Positions 4,466-62,447 of a stretch of DNA of 64,000 nucleotides are shown here, piece by piece; position 1 is the stretch's first letter, and each line of letters starts with the position of its first letter. The position numbers and the translations under genes were made by a program. The stretch covers positions 2,032-66,031 of the forward strand of contig CAIVED010000037.1 in NCBI GenBank assembly GCA_903904885.1, written 5' to 3'. Below the pieces are notes generated by a model that made no database searches, was not told the origin of the DNA, and saw only the letters and a list, made by a program, of their open reading frames with translations. Origin of the DNA: an uncultured archaeon (GTDB lineage: Archaea; Nanobdellota; Nanobdellia; Woesearchaeales; CAIVOO01).

Positions 4466-4519
4466 AATTGCTTCTTGATGAGACTACGTTTCTGTTATCT
4501 CTTTTGAATAATATCTCTC

Positions 4520-4676
4520 TTGCTGGTTCTTGCGTTACTCTCCCTGTTTATTCTGCGTCTTCTGCTCAAGTGCCACGTAAGAAGTAATATTTAGCTGTCG
4601 AGCGCAACGAGACAGCTTAAAGCAGGCCTGGCAATCGAGGCAACTAGTGAAAGAAAGAAGACAGCCTAAGGCCTGC
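4520..4676 (+). repeat. dispersed structured intergenic element, copy 1 (full)
   Basis: TTGCTGGTTCTTGCGTTA-N21-CTTCTGCTCAAGTGCCACGTAAGAAG, then stems AGCTGTC/GACAGCT and GCAGGCCT/AGGCCTGC. Aligns with copies at 11926, 16768, 48178 and 56230. Confidence 0.85.
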
Positions 4677-4714
4677 CCAGAAAACGGGATTTTGTTGCAA
4701 TTAGCTAAATGATA

Positions 4715-10942: not shown

Positions 10943-11608
10943 ATGCTTCTTGAAGACATAAAAGACAAAATCCATCCTGAACTTTATTCTGTTCTCAATA
11001 AAGAGAAAATAAAAGAGCTTAGGCCTGCCCAAGAAAAGGCGATTAATGCGGGGCTTCTTGACTGGAAAAATCTTCTGGTCTGCACCCCGACAGCTTCAGG
11101 GAAAACACTGATTGCGGAAATTGCCGCGATGAATTCAATTTTGAAGGGAATCGGAAAGGCAATCTACATTGTCCCGCTGAAAGCGCTGGCAACAGAGAAA
11201 TTCAAGGATTTCAAAAGGAAATACGAGCACCTGGCAAAAATAATTGTTTCAATCGGCGACAGGGATACTGCCGACCCGTTCATCAGCAAATATGACCTGG
11301 TCATAACAACATCAGAGAAGCTTGACTCGCTAATCAGGCACAAGGCGCCCTGGCTGAAGGACGTGAAAGTCATAATTGTTGACGAGATTCACCTGATAAA
11401 CGACCCGGGCAGGGGACCGACGGTTGAGATTCTGATAACGCTTCTGAGGCAGCTTCTGAAAGACGTCCAGATTATCGGGTTAAGCGCAACAATCGGCAAT
11501 CCAAAAGAACTGGCGAAATGGCTGAATGCCAAACTTGTAGAAGACAGCTGGAGACCGGTTGAACTGCGCAAGGGGATTTACCTGAATGGGAACGTGGAGT
11601 TTTATTAA
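10943..11608 (+). CDS. Ski2/Hel308-like DEAD/DEAH helicase, RecA1 domain only
   Basis: LRPAQEKAI, PTASGKT, PLKALA, DEIH, LSAT, WRPVEL. The ORF stops at 221 aa. Confidence 0.85.
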   Translation: MLLEDIKDKIHPELYSVLNKEKIKELRPAQEKAINAGLLDWKNLLVCTPTASGKTLIAEIAAMNSILKGIGKAIYIVPLKALATEKFKDFKRKYEHLAKIIVSIGDRDTADPFISKYDLVITTSEKLDSLIRHKAPWLKDVKVIIVDEIHLINDPGRGPTVEILITLLRQLLKDVQIIGLSATIGNPKELAKWLNAKLVEDSWRPVELRKGIYLNGNVEFY

Positions 11609-11631
11609 AAAAATAAAATAAATAGAATTAT

Positions 11632-11856
11632 TTATTTCTTCGCCTTCAATCCCAACAGCGCGATTACAAACACAATCGCATACATCACAAATCCATAGAC
11701 GCAGGAAGGCAGTCCGATGATGCTTGTGCATCCTCCTCCCAATGCGCAGAATTTCTGGAACAGTTCAGTGTAGCTCAGATATCCTGAGAAAGCCATTCCT
11801 GCGATGGAAATCCCAAAAATTATCTTCAATGCTGTTTTTTTGTTTTTAATGCACAT
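11632..11856 (-). CDS. small membrane protein resembling N-terminal half of VKOR family
   Basis: Two TM helices, SGYLSY..CALGGGC..GLPSCVYG. Confidence 0.55.
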   Translation of the reverse strand: MCIKNKKTALKIIFGISIAGMAFSGYLSYTELFQKFCALGGGCTSIIGLPSCVYGFVMYAIVFVIALLGLKAKK

Positions 11857-11925
11857 TTTGACACCTCTTTCTCTTTATTATGTACTTCTCTCTTTTAAAA
11901 TTTAACTGTAAAAATAGCATGATAC

Positions 11926-12179
11926 GCAGTTCTTAACATTTCTGCTTGCTGTTTATTGTCCCCTCACTGCCAGAACTGCCATAAACTGCAAGAAATGGCC
12001 TTGCCATTCACAAGAAAAGCTTCGCTTTTCTGTGCCCAGAAAACGCTTTGCGTTTTCTTGGGTTCTGCACAGAAAATGCTATGCATTTTCTTGTGCCTTC
12101 GGCAGTTAGTATAAACTTCTTGTATGGCACTCAAGCAGAAAAAGCCAAACAACTTGAAGTATAATGCAAGAACCAGCAA
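11926..12179 (-). repeat. dispersed structured intergenic element, copy 2 (full, expanded by mini-palindromes)
   Basis: TAATGCAAGAACCAGCAA at 12162-12179, GCAGTTCT/AGAACTGC stem at 11926-11979, and three bulged AGAAAA..TTTTCT palindromes at 12009-12096. Confidence 0.85.
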
Positions 12180-12233
12180 ACGGGATTTTATTATAAGAGC
12201 TAAAAAAGAAAAAAGAAGAAAATAAAATAAAAT

Positions 12234-13469: not shown

Positions 13470-14813
13470 TTACAGGCCCAGATTCCCCATAATCTTCTTC
13501 TTGTCAAATTCCTCGATGTCGTCGTAGCCCTGGCCGCTTCCCAAAAACAAAATTGGCTTCTTGGTTACGTAGGCCGCGGATATTGTTGCACCGCCTTTCT
13601 CGTCCACGTCCGCCTTTGCCAAAATTATGCCATCAATTCCCGTAGTTTCTGCATACTTCTCTGCCTGCTCAACCATGTCGTTGCCCGTGAGGGAATCGCC
13701 GACAAATATTTTCATGTCCGGATTTGACACGCGAATTATTTTTTTCAGCTCGTCCATGAGATTTGCGTTTGAATGGCTTCTTCCGGCAGTGTCAATCAGA
13801 ACGACATCAATGTTTTTTGCCTTGGCATATTGAATGGCATCGTAGGCAACCGCAGCGGCGTCTGAACCGTATTCGCTTTTGATTACTTTTACTCCGAGAT
13901 TGTCGCCGTGCTTCTGCAGCTGGTCTATGGCAGCTGCCCTGAATGTGTCTGCGGCAGCCAAAACAACGGAAATTCCCTTTTTCTTTATGGCATTTGCCAG
14001 CTTTGCTATCGAAGTCGTTTTCCCGCTGCCGTTTATGCCGAAAAAGCAGATGACAAAGGGCTTCTTTGATTTTATAGTCTTGAAAAAATCAACCTTCTCC
14101 TGGGTAAGAACATCGTCAATCCCGTCACGCAATGCGCCGATTATGGTTTCCTCTATTGCCGACCTTTTCAGCTTTTGATTAACCAATTTTGCCTTCATGT
14201 CGCTTTTTATTTTTTCAATTACAGCCACAGCAACATTGTTTTCCAGCATCGCAACTTCCAGCTCCCAGAATATCTCGTCAAATTTTGATTCTGATAATGT
14301 TTTTGTTGTGAAAACCTCGCCAAATTTCCGGAAGAATCCCTTTTTCTCCTCTGCCTCTTCTTCGGCTTCTTCCTCAGCTTCTTCCGGCTTCTCTTTCTTT
14401 TCCTCTGGCTTTGGCTTTTCCTCTTTTATCTTTTCAGGTTTCTTTTCTTCCTTTTCTTCTTTTTCCTCTTCTTCCTCTTCAGCCTCTTCTTTAGGGCCGG
14501 CAAACTTTTCTTTTAATTTTGCAAAGAAACCTTTTTTCTCCTCGGGAACTTCCTCCTCAACCTTTTTCTCTTCCTGTTTTATTTCCTTTTTTATCTCTTT
14601 CTTGGCTTCGGGCTTTTCTTTTCTTATTTTTTCAGCAACTTCCGGCTTTTCTTTCTTTGCCTCTTTCTTCAGTTCCTCTTTTTTCTTCTCAGGCTTTTTT
14701 GCTTCCTTTGGTTTCTCTTTCTTTGCCTTGGGCTCTTCCTCTACCTCTTCCTCAACCTTCCTGGAGAATATTGAAACCGCGCTCTTCAGTTTTTCTTTTA
14801 GAAACTTGAACAT
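13470..14813 (-). CDS. ftsY: SRP receptor FtsY
   Basis: [35 protein letters not shown], and a long Glu/Lys N-terminal region. Confidence 0.97.
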
Positions 14814-16088: not shown

Positions 16089-16700
16089 ATGATGGCAAAG
16101 AAAAAGTCAAAATCCAAAAACGTTAGAAAAGCTGAGCCAGTCAAAAAGGCTCAAAAAAAGAAAACAAACACCGTAGGGTGGGTTATTGGCGCGATAATCG
16201 TCATCGTTATTATCATAGCGATTATCCTTCTAATGCGAGGAGTTACAAAAGCTCCAGTTGTACCTACAACTCCAACTACACCTGCTGCACCAGCGCCAAC
16301 AGAAACGACGCCTTCTGCAAAACCTGAAATAGTTGCGCAGGGACCTGAAGAAATCAAGGCCTGCACAATAAGATACGCAATCGGATGGCCTAAAAACAAG
16401 CTAGGCAATGAGGTCTGTTCAATAAGCGGAACCCAGGTTAATGCGCAGATTATGTACTCAGGAAAGGGCGACTCGTTGAGCGGAATGTGGTTCAAGATTA
16501 CAACCACTGATGGAAAGGTTCAGTACCTTAAGGACTCAACAACTGTAAAGTCCAATGAAACAAGGACCTACTCCGTTGATGTTGGCCAGAAAATAGAAGA
16601 CATGTTAGCATTGCCTATAATTGCAATCGACAATGTTGACAAGGCCTGCCTTAACCAGAGGCTTTTGGTCATAAAAGCTGAAAGCTGCGTAGCAGGATAA
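16089..16700 (+). CDS. membrane-anchored surface protein, paralog of 61875-62447
   Basis: Lys-rich N-terminus, one TM, a P/T/A linker, and a 4-Cys domain ending ACLNQRLLVIKAESC. Confidence 0.75.
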   Translation: MMAKKKSKSKNVRKAEPVKKAQKKKTNTVGWVIGAIIVIVIIIAIILLMRGVTKAPVVPTTPTTPAAPAPTETTPSAKPEIVAQGPEEIKACTIRYAIGWPKNKLGNEVCSISGTQVNAQIMYSGKGDSLSGMWFKITTTDGKVQYLKDSTTVKSNETRTYSVDVGQKIEDMLALPIIAIDNVDKACLNQRLLVIKAESCVAG

Positions 16701-16767
16701 ATTTTTTATTTTCTCTTTTATTTTTTTGTTTTATTAACTCCTTATCAGGTTTCTAACAAAAGCCCCC

Positions 16768-16903
16768 TTGCTGGTTCTTGCATTAGTCTTAATGCTCAGT
16801 TTGCTTCTTCTGCAGCGCAAGAAAAGCTTTGCTTTTCTGCGCGCAGAAAATCCCCGGGGGATTTTCTTGCGGATTGCCATGCAAGAAGTAAAGAAGTAAT
16901 ATT
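16768..16903 (+). repeat. dispersed structured intergenic element, copy 3 (5' half, with two inserted mini-palindromes)
   Basis: TTGCTGGTTCTTGCATTA-N21-CTTCTGC, insertion at 16815-16870, then TTGCCATGCAAGAAG. Confidence 0.8.
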
Positions 16904-16906
16904 AAC

Positions 16907-16993
16907 TGCGCCGACCGGGATTCGAACCCGGGTCACAGCCTGTTTGCATTCTAGTTTGGCAAGGCCGCATACTGACCACTGTACTATCGGCGC
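16907..16993 (-). tRNA. tRNA-Gly(GCC) with 15-nt intron at 37/38
   Basis: Cloverleaf GCGCCGA/TCGGCGC, T-loop TTCGAAT, and BHB with TTGC/GCAA central helix. Confidence 0.92.
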
Positions 16994-16995
16994 GC

Positions 16996-17087
16996 TGGGC
17001 CCGACCGGATTCGAACCGGTGACATACACCTTTCCTGCTTCTTTTGAAAGCTGTAAGGGTGTCGTCATACCGCTAGACCACGGGCCC
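16996..17087 (-). tRNA. tRNA-Val(TAC) with 20-nt intron at 37/38
   Basis: GGGCCCG acceptor, ACACC/GGTGT anticodon stem, TTCGAAT. The BHB central helix is imperfect. Confidence 0.9.
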
Positions 17088-21494: not shown

Positions 21495-21734
21495 ATGAGC
21501 GTTGGGGAACACATACATGTATTTACAACATCAGAATGCAATTTAAACTGTAGCTATTGCTTTGGTCCGAATACGAAATATTCTGATTCCAGGCTTCCTG
21601 AGATTGCCGAGATTCTTGCACAGAATGAAGTTAAGATGGTAACCGCGGGAGGGGGAGAGCCGCGCCTGGTGCTTACATTAAAAAGCACAACCTTTAAAAA
21701 CCACCATTTTTCTTTTAAACCAATGCCCCTGTAG
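21495..21734 (+). pseudogene. truncated radical SAM gene remnant
   Basis: CNLNCSYC and GGGEP, then the frame loses similarity and runs through the tRNA-Glu promoter to a stop inside the tRNA. Confidence 0.7.
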
Positions 21735-21820
21735 TGTAGTCCGGTCAATCATGCCGCCCTTTCAATTCGGGAAACCGACAAAGCAAGGCGGCGACTCGGG
21801 TTCAAATCCCGGCGGGGGCA
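21725..21820 (+). tRNA. tRNA-Glu(TTC) with 21-nt intron at 37/38
   Basis: GCCCCTG/CGGGGGC acceptor, CCGCC/GGCGG stem, intron at 21765-21785 with CTTT/AAAG BHB helix and a GAAA tetraloop. Confidence 0.93.
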
Positions 21821-28387: not shown

Positions 28388-28444
28388 GTTCTTTTTTATT
28401 ATTTTTTATTTTATTTCTTTTTCAAATTAAGAAAATAAAAAAAA

Positions 28445-28819
28445 TTATTTTTTTGGACTTCTGTAAACTGCCCTTGGTCCCCTTGCCCTTGGAACGCCAG
28501 GATGGCGTTTATAAACTGCGCGCATCTTAGGCGCTTTTTCTTCTGAAAATTCTATTCCCAGATGGCCTGCAGAGCGGGCCAGGCATTTGTCCCATAAGTT
28601 TGCAACTAATTCCTGGTCTCCTTCTCCTTTCTCAATCATAAGCCTATAAGCTTCTGCAAGAATTGCATATCCTCCAGGCTTATTTATTGTTAGTGCTGCA
28701 TCAAAAGCTTCCATTGGATCTTCTCTGGCAAGCAGATGCAGCTCGCTTGCTGCATTTGCAATATCCCCGACACATTGCACTGTACGATTAAAAATCCTTA
28801 AATCCTTGGCATCTCCCAT
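28445..28819 (-). CDS. hypothetical protein
   Basis: 124 aa ORF with a GGAGGG RBS. Confidence 0.55.
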   Translation of the reverse strand: MGDAKDLRIFNRTVQCVGDIANAASELHLLAREDPMEAFDAALTINKPGGYAILAEAYRLMIEKGEGDQELVANLWDKCLARSAGHLGIEFSEEKAPKMRAVYKRHPGVPRARGPRAVYRSPKK

Positions 28820-36987: not shown

Positions 36988-39888
36988 CTAATCAATCTCC
37001 TTCCGGACCTTGCACAGGAATTTCGCAATCTCGTCTTCCCAGTACTTCGGAACCGGATGTGAGCAGAAGTCATTGAGCCATTTGACAAAATTATCACTAA
37101 ACCCCTTTCTCTCGCCGTCAATCAATCTGTTTACATCATAGACAATCAATTCCCCCAAATCCCCTTTAAGTCTTGCTTTATTTAACTGCCACCGCAATTT
37201 GTCTTTTTCAGAAACCTCAATCTTCTCTTTCTCCTTTTCCTGCCTTCTCCAGAATTTGTTGTAGTCAATCGTGAATCCGTCACCGATGTCAATTTCTTTT
37301 GCTTTCTTGTCCCCGATTTTTGTACCGATTTTGGCAAGCACCATCTGATGCATCCTCCTCATGAATTCCATTTTGTCTTCAATCCTGAGCAAATCAACAT
37401 ATCCCTGCATGACAAGATTCAATGCAAACGGCGAGGGAATTGTTGTGCTTATTTCTTTTACCTTTATCTTATTGTCCTCGATCATCTCTATAACCCGCTT
37501 TGCGTTGTCAATGTCCATCAAATCCTCCAAAACTTCCCTTCTTGCCTCTTTCAGGACAGAAAAATTATTGCTTATCCTTCTGACAGCAGTGAGAAGTATC
37601 ATAGAACTGACCTGCTGCCTTCCGACTCTCTTCGCTTCACCTTTGTAAATCCTAAGAATCATAAGCGCCCTTGTGGCGCAGTGCCTGAATCTCCTTTTCA
37701 AAACCTCTGTGTTTTCAATCGCATTGTCAAGAATCCCCTTTATCTCCTTTGCATTAAGCATCTCCAGCGCTTTTACTGCATCAAAGCCGCTCTTGGAAGC
37801 AACATAAAACCCGTTGTCATTTATCCCAACTTCAACATCCCGGTGCTGGGCCCTTGCGATTGCATAGGCAACTGCTCTTGAAAGCGCATCATTCACCCTC
37901 CTCCCATAGAGCGCATGGAAAATTGCATAGTGCTTCCCGTCCTCGGTGTAATTTTCAACAATTAATTTCTTCTCGCTCGGAATCTCACCGCAATAAAGGA
38001 ACTGCTCATTGAAATACTCATAGATTGAGTTGGCGGCATTGTCATCAACATAAAGGAATTCGTTTATGAATTTTATAACATCCTGCTTAAGTTCATGGCT
38101 TTTCAGCTTCTCTTCCATCAGTTTCCTGAACCTGCCAATCTCATTTGCCAGGTCAAACGAAAGCGGGAGCATCTCAGAGAACCAGGATGGAACAGTTGGC
38201 TTCCTGCCGATGACTGATTCAACCTGGGCAGTCATTCCCCTTGCAAAATTGAATCTGTAGGTGTCGCCTCCCAAAACAAAAATATCCCCCTTTTTCAGCT
38301 TCTCAAGAAATGCTTCATCAATGGAGCCGATTATCTGCTCGCCAATTTTGACGGAAACAGAAGTCTCCTCAGGAATTGTGCCGATGTTTGTCATGTAAAT
38401 TACACGGCTCATCTTGCCCTTCCTGCCAATCATGCCCGTGCTTTCATCATACCAGATTTTTGAATAGATGTGCCGGTCTTCCAAAGAGATGTATTTTCCT
38501 GCAAGGTAATCAATAACTTCCCCGAAATCCTTTCTCTGCAATGTCGCATAGCAGTAGCTTTTTCTTATTGTTTTGTAAACATCCTCAATATTCTGGTTTC
38601 CTTCAAGAGCAATCCCGTCAATCTGCTGGGCCAGAACATCAAGGCAGTTTTTAGGAATATGAACTTTGTCAATCTTTTTTTCTATTGCACTTTTCAAAAG
38701 AACAGAGCATTCAATCAAATCATCCCTGTCCAATACGACAATCCTGCCCTTTGTTGTCGAGTGAAGCTGGTGGCCCGACCTTCCGACTCTCTGCAGCGCC
38801 CTTGATACGGACTTCGGGGAGCCGAGGAGAATTACCAAGTCTATAAAGCCAATATCAATCCCCAGTTCAAGCGAGGTTGAGCAGACAACGCATTTCAGCT
38901 TTCCGTCCCTGAGACTCTGCTCTATTTTTCTCCGGTGGGTTTTTGAGAGAGAGCCATGATGCGCTCCGATATTCTCTGTATAATTTTTAGGGTATTTTTC
39001 CTTCAGGTGATGCACAACCCTTTCTGTTGCAGCACGGGTGTTTGTGAAAATCAGGGTTGTCTTGTGCGCCTGGATTAGTTTGTCAAGCAGCTCATACAAT
39101 TTGTCATTGAGATATTCCGCGCCGACGTCAGCAAGATTCCTCACCGGGCTGAGCACTTTCATGTCCAGATTTTTCAGGAACTGGACATCAACAATCTTGC
39201 AGTTTCTGTCTGTCCCGACCAGGAACTTCGCTATTTCCTCAAGCGGCGCCACTGTTGCGCTTAACCCTACTCTTGCAAATTCGCAGATTCTCTGCATTCT
39301 CTCAAGAGTCAATGAAAGATGAACTCCCCTCTTGTTTTCAGCCAGCGCATGGATTTCGTCGATAATAACCCATTCAACTGCCTTGAGATGCTCCCTGAAT
39401 TTCAGGGAGGTTATCATTATTGCCAGAGATTCAGGAGTTGTTATCAGAATGTGGGGAGATTTTTTCAGCATGGCCGCTTTTTCAGAGGCAGTTGTGTCCC
39501 CTGTCCTGACGCCAACCCTTATTCCAAGTTTTTTGCCTGCAAGCTTTTCTATCTCCTGGAGGGGGCTTAGGAGATTTACCTGTATGTCATAATTCAACGC
39601 CTTAAGCGGAGAGATGTAAACAGCGTAAACCTTGTCTTCCAATATCCCTTTTTGTGACAGGTCAACAAGCTCGTTCAATATTGACAAAAATCCTGTCAAT
39701 GTCTTGGTTGCCCCTGTGGGAGCGCTCACAAGGATGTTCTCCCTGCTGTGAATTGGCATAACCCCATACAGCTGGGGAATCGAGAACTTCGGGAATTTCG
39801 AGAAAAACCACTGCTTTACGAGGGGATTGAGTATATTAATTAGGTCTTCCGGCCTTTCCGGTTCCTTTTTGTAGATTAGTTTTTCCAT
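36988..39888 (-). CDS. lhr: ATP-dependent helicase Lhr (Lhr-core)
   Basis: YISPLKAL..DI, VRTGDT, TTPESL, DEIH, LSAT, HHGSLS, STSLELGID, QRVGRSGH, YMTNIGTIP. Confidence 0.93.
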   Translation of the reverse strand: MEKLIYKKEPERPEDLINILNPLVKQWFFSKFPKFSIPQLYGVMPIHSRENILVSAPTGATKTLTGFLSILNELVDLSQKGILEDKVYAVYISPLKALNYDIQVNLLSPLQEIEKLAGKKLGIRVGVRTGDTTASEKAAMLKKSPHILITTPESLAIMITSLKFREHLKAVEWVIIDEIHALAENKRGVHLSLTLERMQRICEFARVGLSATVAPLEEIAKFLVGTDRNCKIVDVQFLKNLDMKVLSPVRNLADVGAEYLNDKLYELLDKLIQAHKTTLIFTNTRAATERVVHHLKEKYPKNYTENIGAHHGSLSKTHRRKIEQSLRDGKLKCVVCSTSLELGIDIGFIDLVILLGSPKSVSRALQRVGRSGHQLHSTTKGRIVVLDRDDLIECSVLLKSAIEKKIDKVHIPKNCLDVLAQQIDGIALEGNQNIEDVYKTIRKSYCYATLQRKDFGEVIDYLAGKYISLEDRHIYSKIWYDESTGMIGRKGKMSRVIYMTNIGTIPEETSVSVKIGEQIIGSIDEAFLEKLKKGDIFVLGGDTYRFNFARGMTAQVESVIGRKPTVPSWFSEMLPLSFDLANEIGRFRKLMEEKLKSHELKQDVIKFINEFLYVDDNAANSIYEYFNEQFLYCGEIPSEKKLIVENYTEDGKHYAIFHALYGRRVNDALSRAVAYAIARAQHRDVEVGINDNGFYVASKSGFDAVKALEMLNAKEIKGILDNAIENTEVLKRRFRHCATRALMILRIYKGEAKRVGRQQVSSMILLTAVRRISNNFSVLKEARREVLEDLMDIDNAKRVIEMIEDNKIKVKEISTTIPSPFALNLVMQGYVDLLRIEDKMEFMRRMHQMVLAKIGTKIGDKKAKEIDIGDGFTIDYNKFWRRQEKEKEKIEVSEKDKLRWQLNKARLKGDLGELIVYDVNRLIDGERKGFSDNFVKWLNDFCSHPVPKYWEDEIAKFLCKVRKEID

Positions 39889-47961: not shown

Positions 47962-48085
47962 TGCGGGGGAGGAGATTCGAACTCCCGGACCCACTAAGGG
48001 ACAGGATGGCTTAAAGCCGCCAATTCAGTATTGGCTGCCCCATTTCTTAAGTCCTGCGCGTTTGACCAGACTTCGCTACCCCCGC
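47962..48085 (-). tRNA. tRNA-Leu(TAA) with 38-nt intron at 37/38
   Basis: GCGGGGG/CCCCCGC acceptor, long variable arm, intron at 48008-48045 with CTTA/TAAG BHB helix. Confidence 0.93.
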
Positions 48086-48177
48086 ATAAAGGGCATTCTT
48101 AATAGAATTTGGGAGTTTTAAAAAGGTTTTGATTATCTGTGTTATTTCTCCAATTCCTGCGAGCAAAAACCCATTTT

Positions 48178-48247
48178 CTGGTTCTTGCATTACAACTAAT
48201 GTTGGTTCGGCTTCTTCTGCTCAATTGCCATGCAAGAAATAAATATT
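48178..48247 (+). repeat. dispersed structured intergenic element, copy 4 (5' half)
   Basis: CTGGTTCTTGCATTA-N21-CTTCTGCTCAATTGCCATGCAAGAAATAAATATT. Confidence 0.8.
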
Positions 48248-49586
48248 ATTTCTTTTTAGCGAACTGGCTCTTCTTCCACACAGGAGCGTACAATTTATGC
48301 ACTTCTTTTGAATACTTGTCAATCGCTTTCCTTACCTTCTGGTCTCTGATTGGGTCGTCCGCCCCGGGATGGGTCGGATACAGATTGAATTTCTTCTCCA
48401 TTTCCCGGCTGACTTCAGGATGGTCTATCCACTGGCAGGGCAAAAATAAATTTTCATGGTAGGGCTGCCTCGCCCTCAGCGCCTTGAAGTAATCGGAATT
48501 CAAAACGTCTTTCAATGATTTGTTTTTGATGTTGTCAACCGCCATGTGGGTGAATATGCAGGGCTCCACGTCCCCTTTTGATGTGATGTGAACATACTCT
48601 TTTCCTGCGATGCAGCCGCCGACCCAGGGCGCATCGTTCCAGAAATCCACTATGAATATCGGCTTTGTTTCCCTGAGTTTCAAATCCCGGTTGTACAAAT
48701 GCAGCCTCTGCTTCGGCGTCGGCATTAGTTTCGGGTCCGGCTTTGCGCCCACAGGCATGTAAAGGAAAAACCATCCGAGATAGGCCCCTTTTTCAATCAG
48801 GAAATTGACAAACCTGTCGCTGCTGATTTCCTCTGCATTTTTGCTTGTGACCGCCGATGAAAACCCGAATGGAATTTTGTTTCTCTTCAAAATAGCCATG
48901 GCATTCATTATTTTTTTGTAAACTCCCCTGCCTCTCCTTTCATCTGTCCTTTTTTCAAATCCCTCTATGCTGAGAATCGGCAGGGCATTTCCTGTCTTCA
49001 GCAGTTTTTTTGCAACATCCTCGGTAATGAGGGTGCTGTTGGTGTAAACCTGGAAAAAAACATCTTTGTGCTTCTCAAGAATCCTGAACAGATGCGGCCA
49101 GACAAATGGTTCCCCGCCGAGAAATGTGAAAAACGCAACCCCCATTTTTTTGCCTTCTCTTACTATCCTGTCAACAACCTCAAAAGGCAAATCATCTTCT
49201 CTTGCGTATTTCATTGCATAGCAGCCGACGCATTTCAGGTTGCATCTCATGGTCGGGCTTATCAAAACAGTTGTTGGAACAGTGCCGCCTTTTTTGAACT
49301 CCCTGTTCCTTTTTTTGTAATTCATCACCAGGCCCTGGACAATGAGGTTTTCTATCAGCTTTTCCTTGTAAATCGGAGCAACATTGTCAAGTATTCTTCT
49401 TATCAGCTTGTAGCCGACAGTATTCTTTTCAATCATCTCCCTTACGCTGATTATCGCATCCTTGCTTGCCGCAGTGCTGAACTTTTCGAGAAACCGTGTT
49501 ATATTTATCAGGGTTTTATCAGAAACATTTGTTGCCTTTTTCAGAACAGCAGTTATTGCCTTCTTTTTTATGTAGTTTATTACCAT
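48246..49586 (-). CDS. radical SAM protein (SPASM/twitch-type C-terminus)
   Basis: CNLKCVGC, LGGEP, YTNSTL, GCIAG..GDVEPCIF. Confidence 0.9.
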   Translation of the reverse strand: MVINYIKKKAITAVLKKATNVSDKTLINITRFLEKFSTAASKDAIISVREMIEKNTVGYKLIRRILDNVAPIYKEKLIENLIVQGLVMNYKKRNREFKKGGTVPTTVLISPTMRCNLKCVGCYAMKYAREDDLPFEVVDRIVREGKKMGVAFFTFLGGEPFVWPHLFRILEKHKDVFFQVYTNSTLITEDVAKKLLKTGNALPILSIEGFEKRTDERRGRGVYKKIMNAMAILKRNKIPFGFSSAVTSKNAEEISSDRFVNFLIEKGAYLGWFFLYMPVGAKPDPKLMPTPKQRLHLYNRDLKLRETKPIFIVDFWNDAPWVGGCIAGKEYVHITSKGDVEPCIFTHMAVDNIKNKSLKDVLNSDYFKALRARQPYHENLFLPCQWIDHPEVSREMEKKFNLYPTHPGADDPIRDQKVRKAIDKYSKEVHKLYAPVWKKSQFAKKK

Positions 49587-56181: not shown

Positions 56182-56229
56182 GGTTGGTTAATTTTATTCT
56201 TTTATTACCAAAACAAACTATTTATTTTG

Positions 56230-56392
56230 GCAGTTCTTATTTTTTATTGTTGTTCCAATACTTGCCCTGATTGCCAGAACTGCCTTAACTTGACTCACTT
56301 CTCTGCGCTCGTCAAGTAAATATTTTTTCTTGCGCATGGCATTCGAGCAGAAGAATCAAGCTAAACCTGGATGGTAATGCAAGAACCAGCAA
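56230..56392 (-). repeat. dispersed structured intergenic element, copy 5 (full)
   Basis: TAATGCAAGAACCAGCAA at 56375-56392, stems ACTTGAC/GTCAAGT (56288-56317) and GCAGTTCT/AGAACTGC (56230-56283). Confidence 0.85.
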
Positions 56393-56414
56393 ACGTAATT
56401 TTAATTTAAAGCAA

Positions 56415-57329
56415 TTACTCCCCTATTTTCTCAAGCTCAATCAAGTGCTTCCACTTCTCATCAATATGCTTCTGTATTTTCTCAATCGCATCTTTGTCTT
56501 CCAATAAATGCTTAAACCTTGCCTGGGCTTTCATGAAATCAATTACAGGAAGCTTTTCGTCCGGCTTGTAATTTATTTTGTATTTTCCTTTCTCAACCTC
56601 ATAAATCGGCCAGAAGCATGACTTAACCGCTTTCTCGGATATTTCAACTGCTTCATCTGACTTAATTCCCCACTGTGCGCAGGGCGCAAGAACGTTTATG
56701 AAAGCAGGTCCTTTTGCATCAAATGCTTTTTTAGCTTTCATGTAAAGGTCAAGCGGATGGGAAAGCGATGCCTGGGCAACATAGGGAATTCCATGTGCAA
56801 CCATTATCTCTGTCAAATCTTTCCTGAATGTTTCATTTCCTTTCTTGAATTTTCCTGAGGGAGAAGTTGTTGTATGCGCTCCGTAAGGCGTTGCAGAGCT
56901 TCTCTGATGGCCTGTGTTCATGTAACCCTCATTGTTGTAGCAGACGTAAACAAAATCATGGCCCCTTTCTGCTGCGCCTGAAAGCGCCTGCAATCCGATA
57001 TCATAGGAACCGCCATCCCCGCCGAAGGCAATGAATTTGACATCCTTTTTGATTTTGCCTTTTTTTCTCAGTGCATTGTAGGCAGATTCTATGCCGGAAA
57101 TTGTTGCTGCGGAATTTTCAAAAGCGTTGTGGATGAAAGGAATGTTCCATGAGGAATACGGATAAATCGTTGTCGCAACCTCTAAACATCCTGTTGCGCA
57201 TGAGGCCACAACTTCCTTGTCTGTTCCTGCAAGGATTATTCTTACAATAGGTATGGCTGCGCAGCCGGGGCAAAGCCTGTGGCCGGAAACGATTCTCTTT
57301 TCCTTTGATGCGATTTCCTTGAAGCTCAT
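56415..57329 (-). CDS. porB: pyruvate:ferredoxin oxidoreductase beta subunit
   Basis: GHRLCPGC, ATGCLEV, GGDGGSYDIG, YNNEGYMNTG. Confidence 0.93.
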   Translation of the reverse strand: MSFKEIASKEKRIVSGHRLCPGCAAIPIVRIILAGTDKEVVASCATGCLEVATTIYPYSSWNIPFIHNAFENSAATISGIESAYNALRKKGKIKKDVKFIAFGGDGGSYDIGLQALSGAAERGHDFVYVCYNNEGYMNTGHQRSSATPYGAHTTTSPSGKFKKGNETFRKDLTEIMVAHGIPYVAQASLSHPLDLYMKAKKAFDAKGPAFINVLAPCAQWGIKSDEAVEISEKAVKSCFWPIYEVEKGKYKINYKPDEKLPVIDFMKAQARFKHLLEDKDAIEKIQKHIDEKWKHLIELEKIGE

Positions 57330-61874: not shown

Positions 61875-62447
61875 TCATCCTCTGCAGGCTTCAGCTTTTA
61901 TTATCAAAAGCCTCTGGTTGAAGCAGGCATTGTCCTTGCCGTCAACGGTCTTGACAGGAAATGCCGTCATCTCTTCAATCTTGCTTCCTACTTTTGACTC
62001 AAGGTCAGAGATTGAAAAAGAGTATTCTGCAACACCATTATAGTCTGCTTTGGTGTTGTCCTGGAAAATCTTTATGACTTTGTTGACTCCGGTAACATAG
62101 AACACCATTCCGCTTATTCCGTTCTGCCCTGATGCCTTAATTCTTACTTTCAGGTTATCCCCCGACATCTCGCAGGAATTTGGAATCCACCCTATGCTGT
62201 AGACTGATTCGCACATCTTTATCTCCTGAACCTGGGCTTCTGCCGCAGAAGGCGCAGATGTTGTTGCAGGAAGATTTGCCGGTTCAGCCGGAGCCGCTGT
62301 TCCTGTTGAAGGCGTTGAAGCTGCGGGAGTTGCGCTCCCGGTGGCCTCCTGACCCTGCGGCGGATAAATTGTTGTGGTTGTGCCGCAGCCAACCAAGAAC
62401 ATTGAAACTACAAGCAAAACTGCAAAACCGATTATGTATTTTTTCAT
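61875..62447 (-). CDS. putative lipoprotein, paralog of 16089-16700
   Basis: LVGC lipobox, P/T/A linker, and a 4-Cys domain ending ACFNQRLLIIKAEAC. Confidence 0.75.
   Translation of the reverse strand: MKKYIIGFAVLLVVSMFLVGCGTTTTIYPPQGQEATGSATPAASTPSTGTAAPAEPANLPATTSAPSAAEAQVQEIKMCESVYSIGWIPNSCEMSGDNLKVRIKASGQNGISGMVFYVTGVNKVIKIFQDNTKADYNGVAEYSFSISDLESKVGSKIEEMTAFPVKTVDGKDNACFNQRLLIIKAEACRG

Follow-up and report, generated by a model that had tools for sequence, protein, structure and literature searches.

Paired bulged hairpins between the genes of Woesearchaeota- and Pacearchaeota-type archaea: a candidate REPIN/BIME-like repeat family

The mini-palindromes found in a 64-kb stretch of DNA from an uncultured archaeon of the order Woesearchaeales (contig CAIVED010000037.1; this whole stretch of 64,000 nucleotides is called the window below) are, with a probability that we put at about 0.55, non-autonomous hairpin doublets of Woesearchaeota/Pacearchaeota-type archaea of the DPANN group, comparable to REPINs (head-to-head dimers of repetitive extragenic palindromes, REPs) and to bacterial interspersed mosaic elements (BIMEs). 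The hairpins form a family that is distributed over many genomes of these archaea, keeps a single bulged base and a covarying foot, has variable tips and lies between genes; in one case a whole doublet was gained or lost without a scar. Such a family of bulged hairpin pairs has apparently not been described so far in archaea of the Woesearchaeota/Pacearchaeota type; our literature search retrieved no paper tying DPANN archaea to REP-, MITE- (miniature inverted-repeat transposable element) or IS200-type repeats, and the search of Rfam with eight doublet-bearing loci (E up to 0.1) gave no match.

Five palindromes, at 12009-12034, 12035-12062, 12067-12096, 16815-16842 and 16843-16870, had been claimed in a preliminary description of the window, and all of them read as stated there, each with an outer stem, a one-base bulge, AGAAAA/TTTTCT arms, a self-complementary tip and a loop of 1-3 nt. 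The sequence GCGAAGC, ascribed to one of them, is indeed present, on the minus strand of unit 1 (12009-12034). The units are 26-30 nt long, and in these five the outer stem measures 1-3 bp and a single base is bulged. One arm is always CAAGAAAA or TTTTCTTG, the opposite one being CAGAAAA or TTTTCTG. The unit, being asymmetric, therefore occurs in two orientations, F (CAAGAAAA...TTTTCTG, with a bulged A) and R (CAGAAAA...TTTTCTTG, with a bulged T). Both arrays are also placed as described, within copies of a host repeat of about 200 nt (see below): the array of copy 2 follows ...CTGCCGAAGGCA, which is the 3' strand of the second hairpin of the host repeat, and that of copy 3 lies in block B, between TTCTGC and TGCCATGCAAGAA, in the order F-R on the plus strand. 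As to the 'three tandem units' of copy 2, their positions proved right but their equivalence did not: an intact doublet (12009-12062) is nested in an older, interrupted hairpin, and unit 3 is the partner of the latter. When the interrupted hairpin is counted, the window contains six units at two loci:

11987-12008: 5' portion of F_a, the older hairpin, TG-CAAGAAA-TGGC CTT GCCA-TT, split by doublet b
12009-12034: hairpin F_b (unit 1), CA-CAAGAAAA-GC TTC GC-TTTTCTG-TG, with a bulged A in the 5' arm
12035-12062: hairpin R_b (unit 2), CC-CAGAAAA-CGC TTT GCG-TTTTCTTG-GG, bulged by a T in its 3' arm; this is the asymmetric hairpin F in reverse orientation
12009-12062: doublet b, the 54 nt of F_b + R_b, sited within the 3' arm of F_a (in its T-run)
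12063-12069: 3' remainder of F_a, TTCTG-CA
12067-12096: hairpin R_a (unit 3), G-CA-CAGAAAA-TGC TAT GCA-TTTTCTTG-TG-C, partner of F_a in the older doublet a
16815-16842: hairpin F_c, GCG-CAAGAAAA-GC TTT GC-TTTTCTG-CGC
16843-16870: hairpin R_c, G-CAGAAAA-TCCCC G GGGGA-TTTTCTTG-C
16815-16870: doublet c (F_c + R_c), sited in block B of host copy 3 and missing from paralogous host copies

The comparison with shuffled DNA had been named beforehand as a refuting test, and it gave a clear excess: AGAAAA-N(3-16)-TTTTCT has seven matches in the window, whereas dinucleotide shuffles predict 0.71 and in no case out of 100 attained seven. Among the 13 distinct perfect hairpins of at least 8 bp in the 64 kb, five are these units. 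No F or R unit was found in 1.12 Mb of unrelated loci, as compared to five in the window. When folded as a single strand, both arrays give, on either strand, adjacent hairpins with a single bulged base in each; the z-scores of the folds on the two strands are -8.9 and -8.6 for the array of copy 2, and -5.8 and -5.7 for that of copy 3.

The same doublet is present in many other genomes. One genome per prokaryotic species was scanned with the F-R pattern CAAGAAAA-N5-13-TTTTCTG-N2-8-CAGAAAA, which has 22 specified bases, and at least 115 loci were found in these species-representative genomes. Among the matches listed, 64 of 80 records are archaeal, nearly all of them labelled as Woesearchaeota, Pacearchaeota or Nanoarchaeota, and the 16 bacterial records look like chance matches. 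The tip is self-complementary, as in a hairpin, in 106 of the 139 F-R matches listed, so that there are at least 106 hairpin-like doublets. The control with the mirror order R-F, also with 22 specified bases and scanned completely, produced 73 matches, of which 12 were hairpin-like; 11 of these 12 belong to DPANN archaea and lie within longer arrays. The scan and its controls thus indicate that the hairpin marks this archaeal group and that its usual form is a head-to-head doublet, CAAGAAAA-tip-TTTTCTG, 2-8 nt, CAGAAAA-tip-TTTTCTTG. The G+C content of the genomes sharing the arm sequence ranges from 31 to 45%. A viral or plasmid origin was considered and rejected, since none of the ten F-R pattern matches in IMG/VR viral contigs was hairpin-like.

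The other refuting condition, a bulge not conserved in further copies, did not come true either. When only the 5' arm, CA-GAAAA, of the second hairpin was demanded, the 3' arm was TTG (TTTTCTTG, bulged) in 59 cases, TG (TTTTCTG, unbulged) in three and something else in 17. Among the units having both arms CA(A)/T(T)G, the bulge is kept in 114 of 118. The foot pair lying directly outside CA(A)G/C(T)TG is a Watson-Crick pair in 95 of 103 distinct units, with all four pair types represented, and the second foot pair in 79 of 103; G-T pairs are not commoner than other mismatches. The tips, 6-14 nt long, are unrelated in sequence and paired, with loops mostly of 3 nt. As the foot covaries within each hairpin, with its own partner and not with the far arm, a fold of the doublet into an unbulged four-way junction (outer stem CAAGAAAA:TTTTCTTG, inner stem TTTTCTG:CAGAAAA) is ruled out; the feet in copy 2 (CC/GG versus CA/TG) and in another locus, L137 (CG/CG versus CC/GG), exemplify this.

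The window sequence was found in four freshwater-sediment metagenome runs, at a depth of 2-4x. In at least four Logan contigs (X2 rec 4, 5, 6; X4 rec 9), ...CAAGAAAATGGCTTnGCCATT is joined straight to the sequence of the window from 12063 onward (TTCTGCACAGAAAATGC...), where the window itself reads CAAGAAATGGCCTTGCCATT (12009-12062) TTCTGCACAG.... These contigs join 12008 to 12063 and thereby identify 12009-12062 as an insertion in the T-run of the older hairpin's 3' arm. The borders of the 54-nt insertion are unambiguous, and its junctions have neither a target duplication nor microhomology. In X2 rec 5, the R_a hairpin stands beside an intact F_a, with one mismatch in 42 nt. The empty site was read from the loose ends of contigs that break at hairpins, and it represents one event. 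Other metagenome contigs carry doublets at further positions of other host-repeat copies, and host copies devoid of doublets are present as well. A target-site duplication of 2 nt (CA...CA for copy 2, CG...CG for copy 3) was considered and rejected, because other doublets have inverted and not direct flanks. Over window positions 11988-12043, X2 rec 3 and X3 rec 7 have the same neighbours and one hairpin tip TCACAAGGTGA instead of CGCTTTGCG, still self-complementary. This difference suggests an exchange of tips between hairpins by recombination via their shared arms, or some other diversifying process.

All 56 classified doublets are intergenic, and they occur in all gene arrangements: 32 between tandem, 13 between convergent and 11 between divergent genes. 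Contig ends are frequent at the doublets (34 of 100), and the short public contigs of the window locus stop exactly at the start of the array. No recurring neighbour protein family, whether transposase or recombinase, was revealed among 830 open reading frames (ORFs) near doublets, and hence the repeat appears to be non-autonomous. An association with tRNA genes, hinted at by copy 3 and by two other loci (L197, L241), was rejected, a tRNA being found within 100 nt in two of 60 loci. Within single metagenome-assembled genomes (MAGs), the doublet is the centre of multicopy composite elements that have sharp ends and optional hairpin modules. Comparison of anchored flank listings in the MAG JAUYDD01 revealed 13 near-identical composite copies of about 200-330 nt, bounded by ATGTC(A/G)GAAAT and CATTGTTTTTTTGAT; their optional modules are pairs of bulged hairpins, and one composite module resembles the right end of the insertion sequence (IS) described below. 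Their positions are:

L141:5100-5500: composite copy
L141:7130-7400: composite copy
L139, L158, L165, L185, L193, L200, L210, L217, L224, L225 and L229: composite copies at 11 loci

Enzymes of the IS200/IS605/RAYT Y1 class (RAYT, REP-associated tyrosine transposase) act on folded hairpins of single-stranded DNA and move without target duplication. They were sought by a local phmmer search in six-frame ORFs of the window and of 1.5 Mb of loci, with IS608 TnpA and the E. coli RAYT as the queries. The sole archaeal match, L170:3783-4256, is in a Woesearchaeota MAG rich in doublets and contains the Pfam domain Y1_Tnp (PF01797, E 5.6e-17). It was also the only Y1 ORF within 4-8 kb of about 100 doublets, at a distance of 1.25 kb from the doublet. 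The ORF belongs to a tight family of proteins of about 157 aa (299 clusters), named IS200/IS605 transposase in Pacearchaeota and Nanoarchaeota records and possessing an H-U-Q or H-U-H motif and an invariant tyrosine. Identical proteins of this family occur in at least ten different gene contexts each, which points to an active multicopy IS of about 0.75 kb and not to a single-copy RAYT. The family was sampled at loci L170 and L326-L346; most of the public contigs that carry it measure only some 1 kb. At its left end, the IS has the bulged hairpin CTACAC(T)CC TTTA GGGTGTAG, and its right end closes with GGAGGATGTCAC. Apart from the composite module mentioned above, the only tie between this IS and the doublets is that 17 of 119 doublets, where 2.6 would be expected, have a hairpin of the IS-end type (CCAC..TTTA..GTGG) no farther than 200 nt away; the window has none. 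The junction sequences differ between the two insertions in the window. The Y1 enzyme class is accordingly present and active in these archaea, as the many contexts of its identical proteins indicate.

The host repeat carrying the hairpins is represented in the window by five copies, two of which bear mini-hairpins:

4505-4700, plus strand: host copy 1, full length, without mini-hairpins
11908-12200, minus strand: host copy 2, about 200 nt without the array; doublets a and b follow the second hairpin (CTGCC GAA GGCA)
16750-16906, plus strand: host copy 3, truncated where a tRNA gene (16907-16993, minus strand) has its 3' end; carries doublet c
48157-48245, plus strand: host copy 4, 5' module only, without mini-hairpins
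56196-56418, minus strand: host copy 5, full length, without mini-hairpins

Eight further copies came from one set of JGI sediment metagenome contigs (L095, L096, L098, L100, L101, L109, L113, L125). The mini-palindromes are missing from 11 of the 13 copies, which makes them additions to the host unit. The host repeat begins with a conserved 5' block, CTGGTTCTTGCATTA, followed by about 20 variable nucleotides; the block GGCTTCTTCTGC-N5-TGCCATGCAAGAA closes a stem with the 5' block, and the repeat also includes a covarying hairpin (CTGCC GAA GGCAG), a covarying long-range stem (GCAGTTCT...AGAACTGC) and an A-run/T-run end. RNAalifold predicted 35 pairs for the host-repeat copies, nine of them with compensatory changes. 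An A/T-rich box is found upstream of the repeat, most copies are located at gene 3' ends, and in 9 of 11 the downstream gene is convergent. The host repeat may be an RNA gene or else a DNA repeat of the BIME kind, and it has arms (TTCTTGC/GCAAGAA) similar to the mini-hairpin arms. At gathering score, the Rfam 15 covariance models detected only four tRNAs in the window, and a search with host copy 5 at E up to 10 gave nothing meaningful. The closest relatives by protein similarity are Woesearchaeota-type MAGs (62-75% identity in a 2-oxoacid oxidoreductase subunit); among 77 loci of relatives retrieved via the beta subunit of this enzyme (at best 75% identical), none has the hairpins or the host repeat. 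Scanning the species-representative genomes with a host-repeat 18-mer yielded chance matches only, the match in 'Odinarchaeota' being inside a coding sequence. The independence of the mini-palindromes from the larger element, asserted in the preliminary description, was borne out: some 1 Mb of other DPANN loci contained no host repeat, and the doublet is present in more than 100 DPANN loci without it, so that the hairpins constitute a family of their own. The host repeat is specific to the source lineage; the hairpins are not.

Under our preferred reading, that of a mobile REPIN/BIME-like doublet, the hairpins would act as folded single-stranded DNA, and an enzyme acting in trans would recognize the stem CA(A)GAAAA/TTTTC(T)TG together with the bulge, by which strand and orientation would be marked. 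This enzyme would move the doublet without target duplication, and doublets would pile up beside or inside other intergenic hairpins to give mosaic BIME-like clusters. In the window, an older doublet (11987-12096) may have settled behind the second hairpin of a host copy, a younger one (12009-12062) having later landed in its arm. A HUH Y1 transposase of the IS200/IS605/RAYT kind might be the mover; it is the best candidate class, although the assignment is tentative and, in our opinion, probably not correct. Thus, from the idea of a second, independently spreading REP-like unit we retain a separate family with inverted pairs, mosaics and one precise insertion, but not the link to RAYT.

Several observations weigh against the doublets being moved in this way. 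As for the enzyme, the protein search for Y1_Tnp/RAYT that had been proposed earlier was run on the ORFs of the window and found nothing, and no IS-end motifs are present in the window. The ends of the multicopy IS200-like family (AATTAG...; ...GGAGGATGTCAC) are unlike those of the doublet, and no F or R hairpin occurs in 48 kb around 22 copies of the Y1 gene, i.e., none of the 22 copies is flanked by hairpins. Moreover, a GTAG or CGTC tag was not found at the hairpin foot, which consists of a variable 2-bp stem followed by CA(A)G/C(T)TG. As for the mobility itself, the tips are all different within the window, where recent copying predicts otherwise, and a wholly different tip occurs in an otherwise similar array. 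The contigs with the empty site, at a depth of 2-4x, are paralogues or divergent strains, not proven alleles, and at 12009-12062 a precise loss cannot be distinguished from a precise gain. None of the RNA runs searched contains the window locus or a Rifle MAG locus. Finally, a selfish element accounts for the conservation of the arms over a phylum-level group no better than a conserved host function does; together with the diversity of the tips, the depth of this conservation leaves room for such a function or for enzyme-free growth of palindromes with exchange of tips.

The doublet could be the site of a factor conserved across Woese- and Pacearchaeota and serving single-strand DNA transposition or recombination of a new, non-RAYT kind, or else a lineage-wide DNA or RNA punctuation signal that is copied around the genome; we regard this version as rather unlikely. 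We also hold to be unlikely a role of the hairpins as selected cis-signals, i.e., bidirectional terminators or hairpins for processing or stabilization of RNA 3' ends, a useful module that spreads. Transcribed from either side, the A-run/T-run arms would yield a U-tract, and exonucleases would be stopped by the stem; both arrays of the window lie behind gene 3' ends, the host repeat has a convergent downstream gene in 9 of 11 cases, and other convergent gene ends of the window have A/T palindromes (11616-11637, 48234-48254). The conservation of the arms across very distant genomes and the pairing of the tips, maintained despite changes of their sequence, would be expected as well. However, 11 of the 56 classified doublets are between divergent genes, close to random intergenic placement, and a terminator consensus scan flags no hairpin, because the T-run is only four long and lies within the stem. 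The G-T pairs, no commoner than other mismatches, and the lack of an Rfam family match also speak against an RNA signal, and a terminator would moreover account neither for the foot (CA(A)G/C(T)TG) and the one-base bulge nor for the strict order F-R, the nesting and the tandem arrays of 3-4 units.

An origin without any dedicated enzyme, through replication errors (intrastrand template switching, snap-back synthesis) at the A-run/T-run arms, with gene conversion swapping tips and duplicating units, we consider more doubtful than the cis-signal. It would account for the adjacency of the units to arm-like sequence or their entry into it (TTCTTCTGC, GCAAGAA in block B, the T-run of F_a), for tips that are perfect palindromes of unrelated sequence, for the related array with a wholly different tip in the same context, and for the absence of a transposase linked to the units. 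Nevertheless, template switching yields perfect palindromes and not a bulge conserved in 114 of 118 units, and the junctions of the 54-nt insertion have no microhomology; the recurrence of one arm sequence throughout a phylum-level group, in genomes with 31-45% G+C, and the near-identical composites at many unrelated sites of one genome would likewise be left unexplained. As to the hairpins being expansion segments of a structured non-coding RNA, the host repeat, without an independent life, the fold of that repeat (9 of 35 pairs compensatory), its upstream A/T-rich box and terminal T-run, and the tolerance of hairpins at several of its positions are in agreement with it. The 11 of 13 host copies without hairpins and the absence of an Rfam match speak against it, and the doublets in more than 100 loci without the host repeat have largely refuted this explanation, which we hold to be very improbable. 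Hardly credible, finally, are double-stranded operators for a dimeric regulator, e.g., one of the Lrp/FFRP type binding GAAA...TTTC palindromes. The palindromic half-sites appear to resemble archaeal operators of the TGAAA-N-TTTCA type, but they stand at variable distances of 6 to 14 nt, and the sequence between them is self-complementary in every case, a combination that makes sense only if the hairpin forms; nor are the sites enriched upstream of genes.

Whether a conserved factor recognizes the doublet or the doublet is a lineage-wide punctuation signal, Archaea would then have their first described REP-like system of phylum-wide extent, whose arm sequence has stayed constant over distances that make bacterial REPs unrecognisable. 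DPANN archaea have very small genomes with little space for junk, and a stem and bulge that are identical in hundreds of distant genomes therefore suggest that a partner protein and a process have been conserved with them. In any case, the doublet motif is a simple sequence marker for this archaeal group, and the family explains why assemblies break at certain intergenic sites. The filled and empty sites in a multicopy host repeat make the chemistry of insertion directly testable, for instance with the 157-aa Y1 transposases.

A few other features of the window deserve mention. Next to host copy 2, a 221-aa ORF (10943-11608, plus strand) has an N-terminal DEAD-box helicase domain only and is a paralogue fragment of a 966-aa helicase at 36988-39888; it is followed on the opposite strand by a 74-aa VKOR-like fragment (11632-11856, minus strand), and both may be gene remnants. 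Four tRNA genes of 87-124 nt (16907-16993, 16996-17087, 21725-21820 and 47962-48085), several of which ARAGORN misses or misreads, evidently contain introns; two of them, in tandem, directly abut the truncated host copy 3. A 92-nt inverted repeat (16638-16729/61843-61934, 78%) covers the 3' ends of the ORFs 16089-16700 (plus strand) and 61875-62447 (minus strand), which are probably paralogous genes, and the T-rich DNA behind them. Pure A/T palindromes (e.g., AAATAAATAGAATTATTTATTT) at convergent gene ends (11616-11637, 28438-28454, 48234-48254) have the look of normal T-run terminators working in both directions and are different from the bulged hairpins. Low-complexity CTTC/TTTC repeats at 14323-14750 fall within a 447-aa ORF (13470-14813, minus strand), for which they predict a Glu/Lys-rich repetitive segment.

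Pairs of hairpins are also known as double-hairpin elements, which occur in the mitochondrial genomes of fungi and algae. To our knowledge, no enzyme mobilising these elements or the mitochondrial hairpin repeats has been identified. Like them and like the repetitive hairpin elements of sponge mitochondria (PMC2800124), the doublets described here consist of two adjacent hairpins inserting into intergenic DNA and other repeats; the mitochondrial elements differ in being organellar, G+C-rich, unrelated in sequence and devoid of a conserved bulge. With the attC sites of integrons, the doublets share folded single-strand hairpins, extrahelical bases that set the polarity, conserved ends and a variable paired centre. 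However, they lack R''/R' boxes (RYYYAAC/GTTRRRY), their CAAGAAAA/TTTTCTG arms contain no AAC/GTT cores, they are not boundaries of gene cassettes, and no recombinase or integrase recurs in their neighbourhood.

The likeness to the REP/RAYT systems, described from bacteria (PMC3733652, PMC3337134), is closer. The units are short (26-30 nt) imperfect palindromes with a stem irregularity giving polarity, they are extragenic and non-autonomous, and they are arranged in inverted doublets, as in REPINs, and in mosaic clusters; the composite of JAUYDD01 has the same mosaic architecture as bacterial BIMEs. In contrast to REPs, the doublets have no GTAG/CGTC tag and flank no RAYT gene in the window or at the loci sampled, only their arms are conserved and the tips vary from copy to copy, which is unusual for REPs, and the arm sequence is common to a phylum-level archaeal group, where REPs are confined to a species or genus. 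Gene-less derivatives of IS200/IS605 elements are exemplified by the palindrome-associated transposable elements (PATEs) of haloarchaea. The hairpins of the doublet do not appear to be the left- or right-end hairpins of the IS found here, and no fixed target tetranucleotide emerged for them. What the doublets have in common with the IS200/IS605 and PATE elements is precise insertion or excision without target duplication or terminal inverted repeats (here judged from one event, on short contigs) and a probable reliance on bulged subterminal hairpins in single-stranded DNA; furthermore, an IS200-like family is active in the same archaea, and hairpins resembling its ends are found in some of the mosaics that hold doublets.

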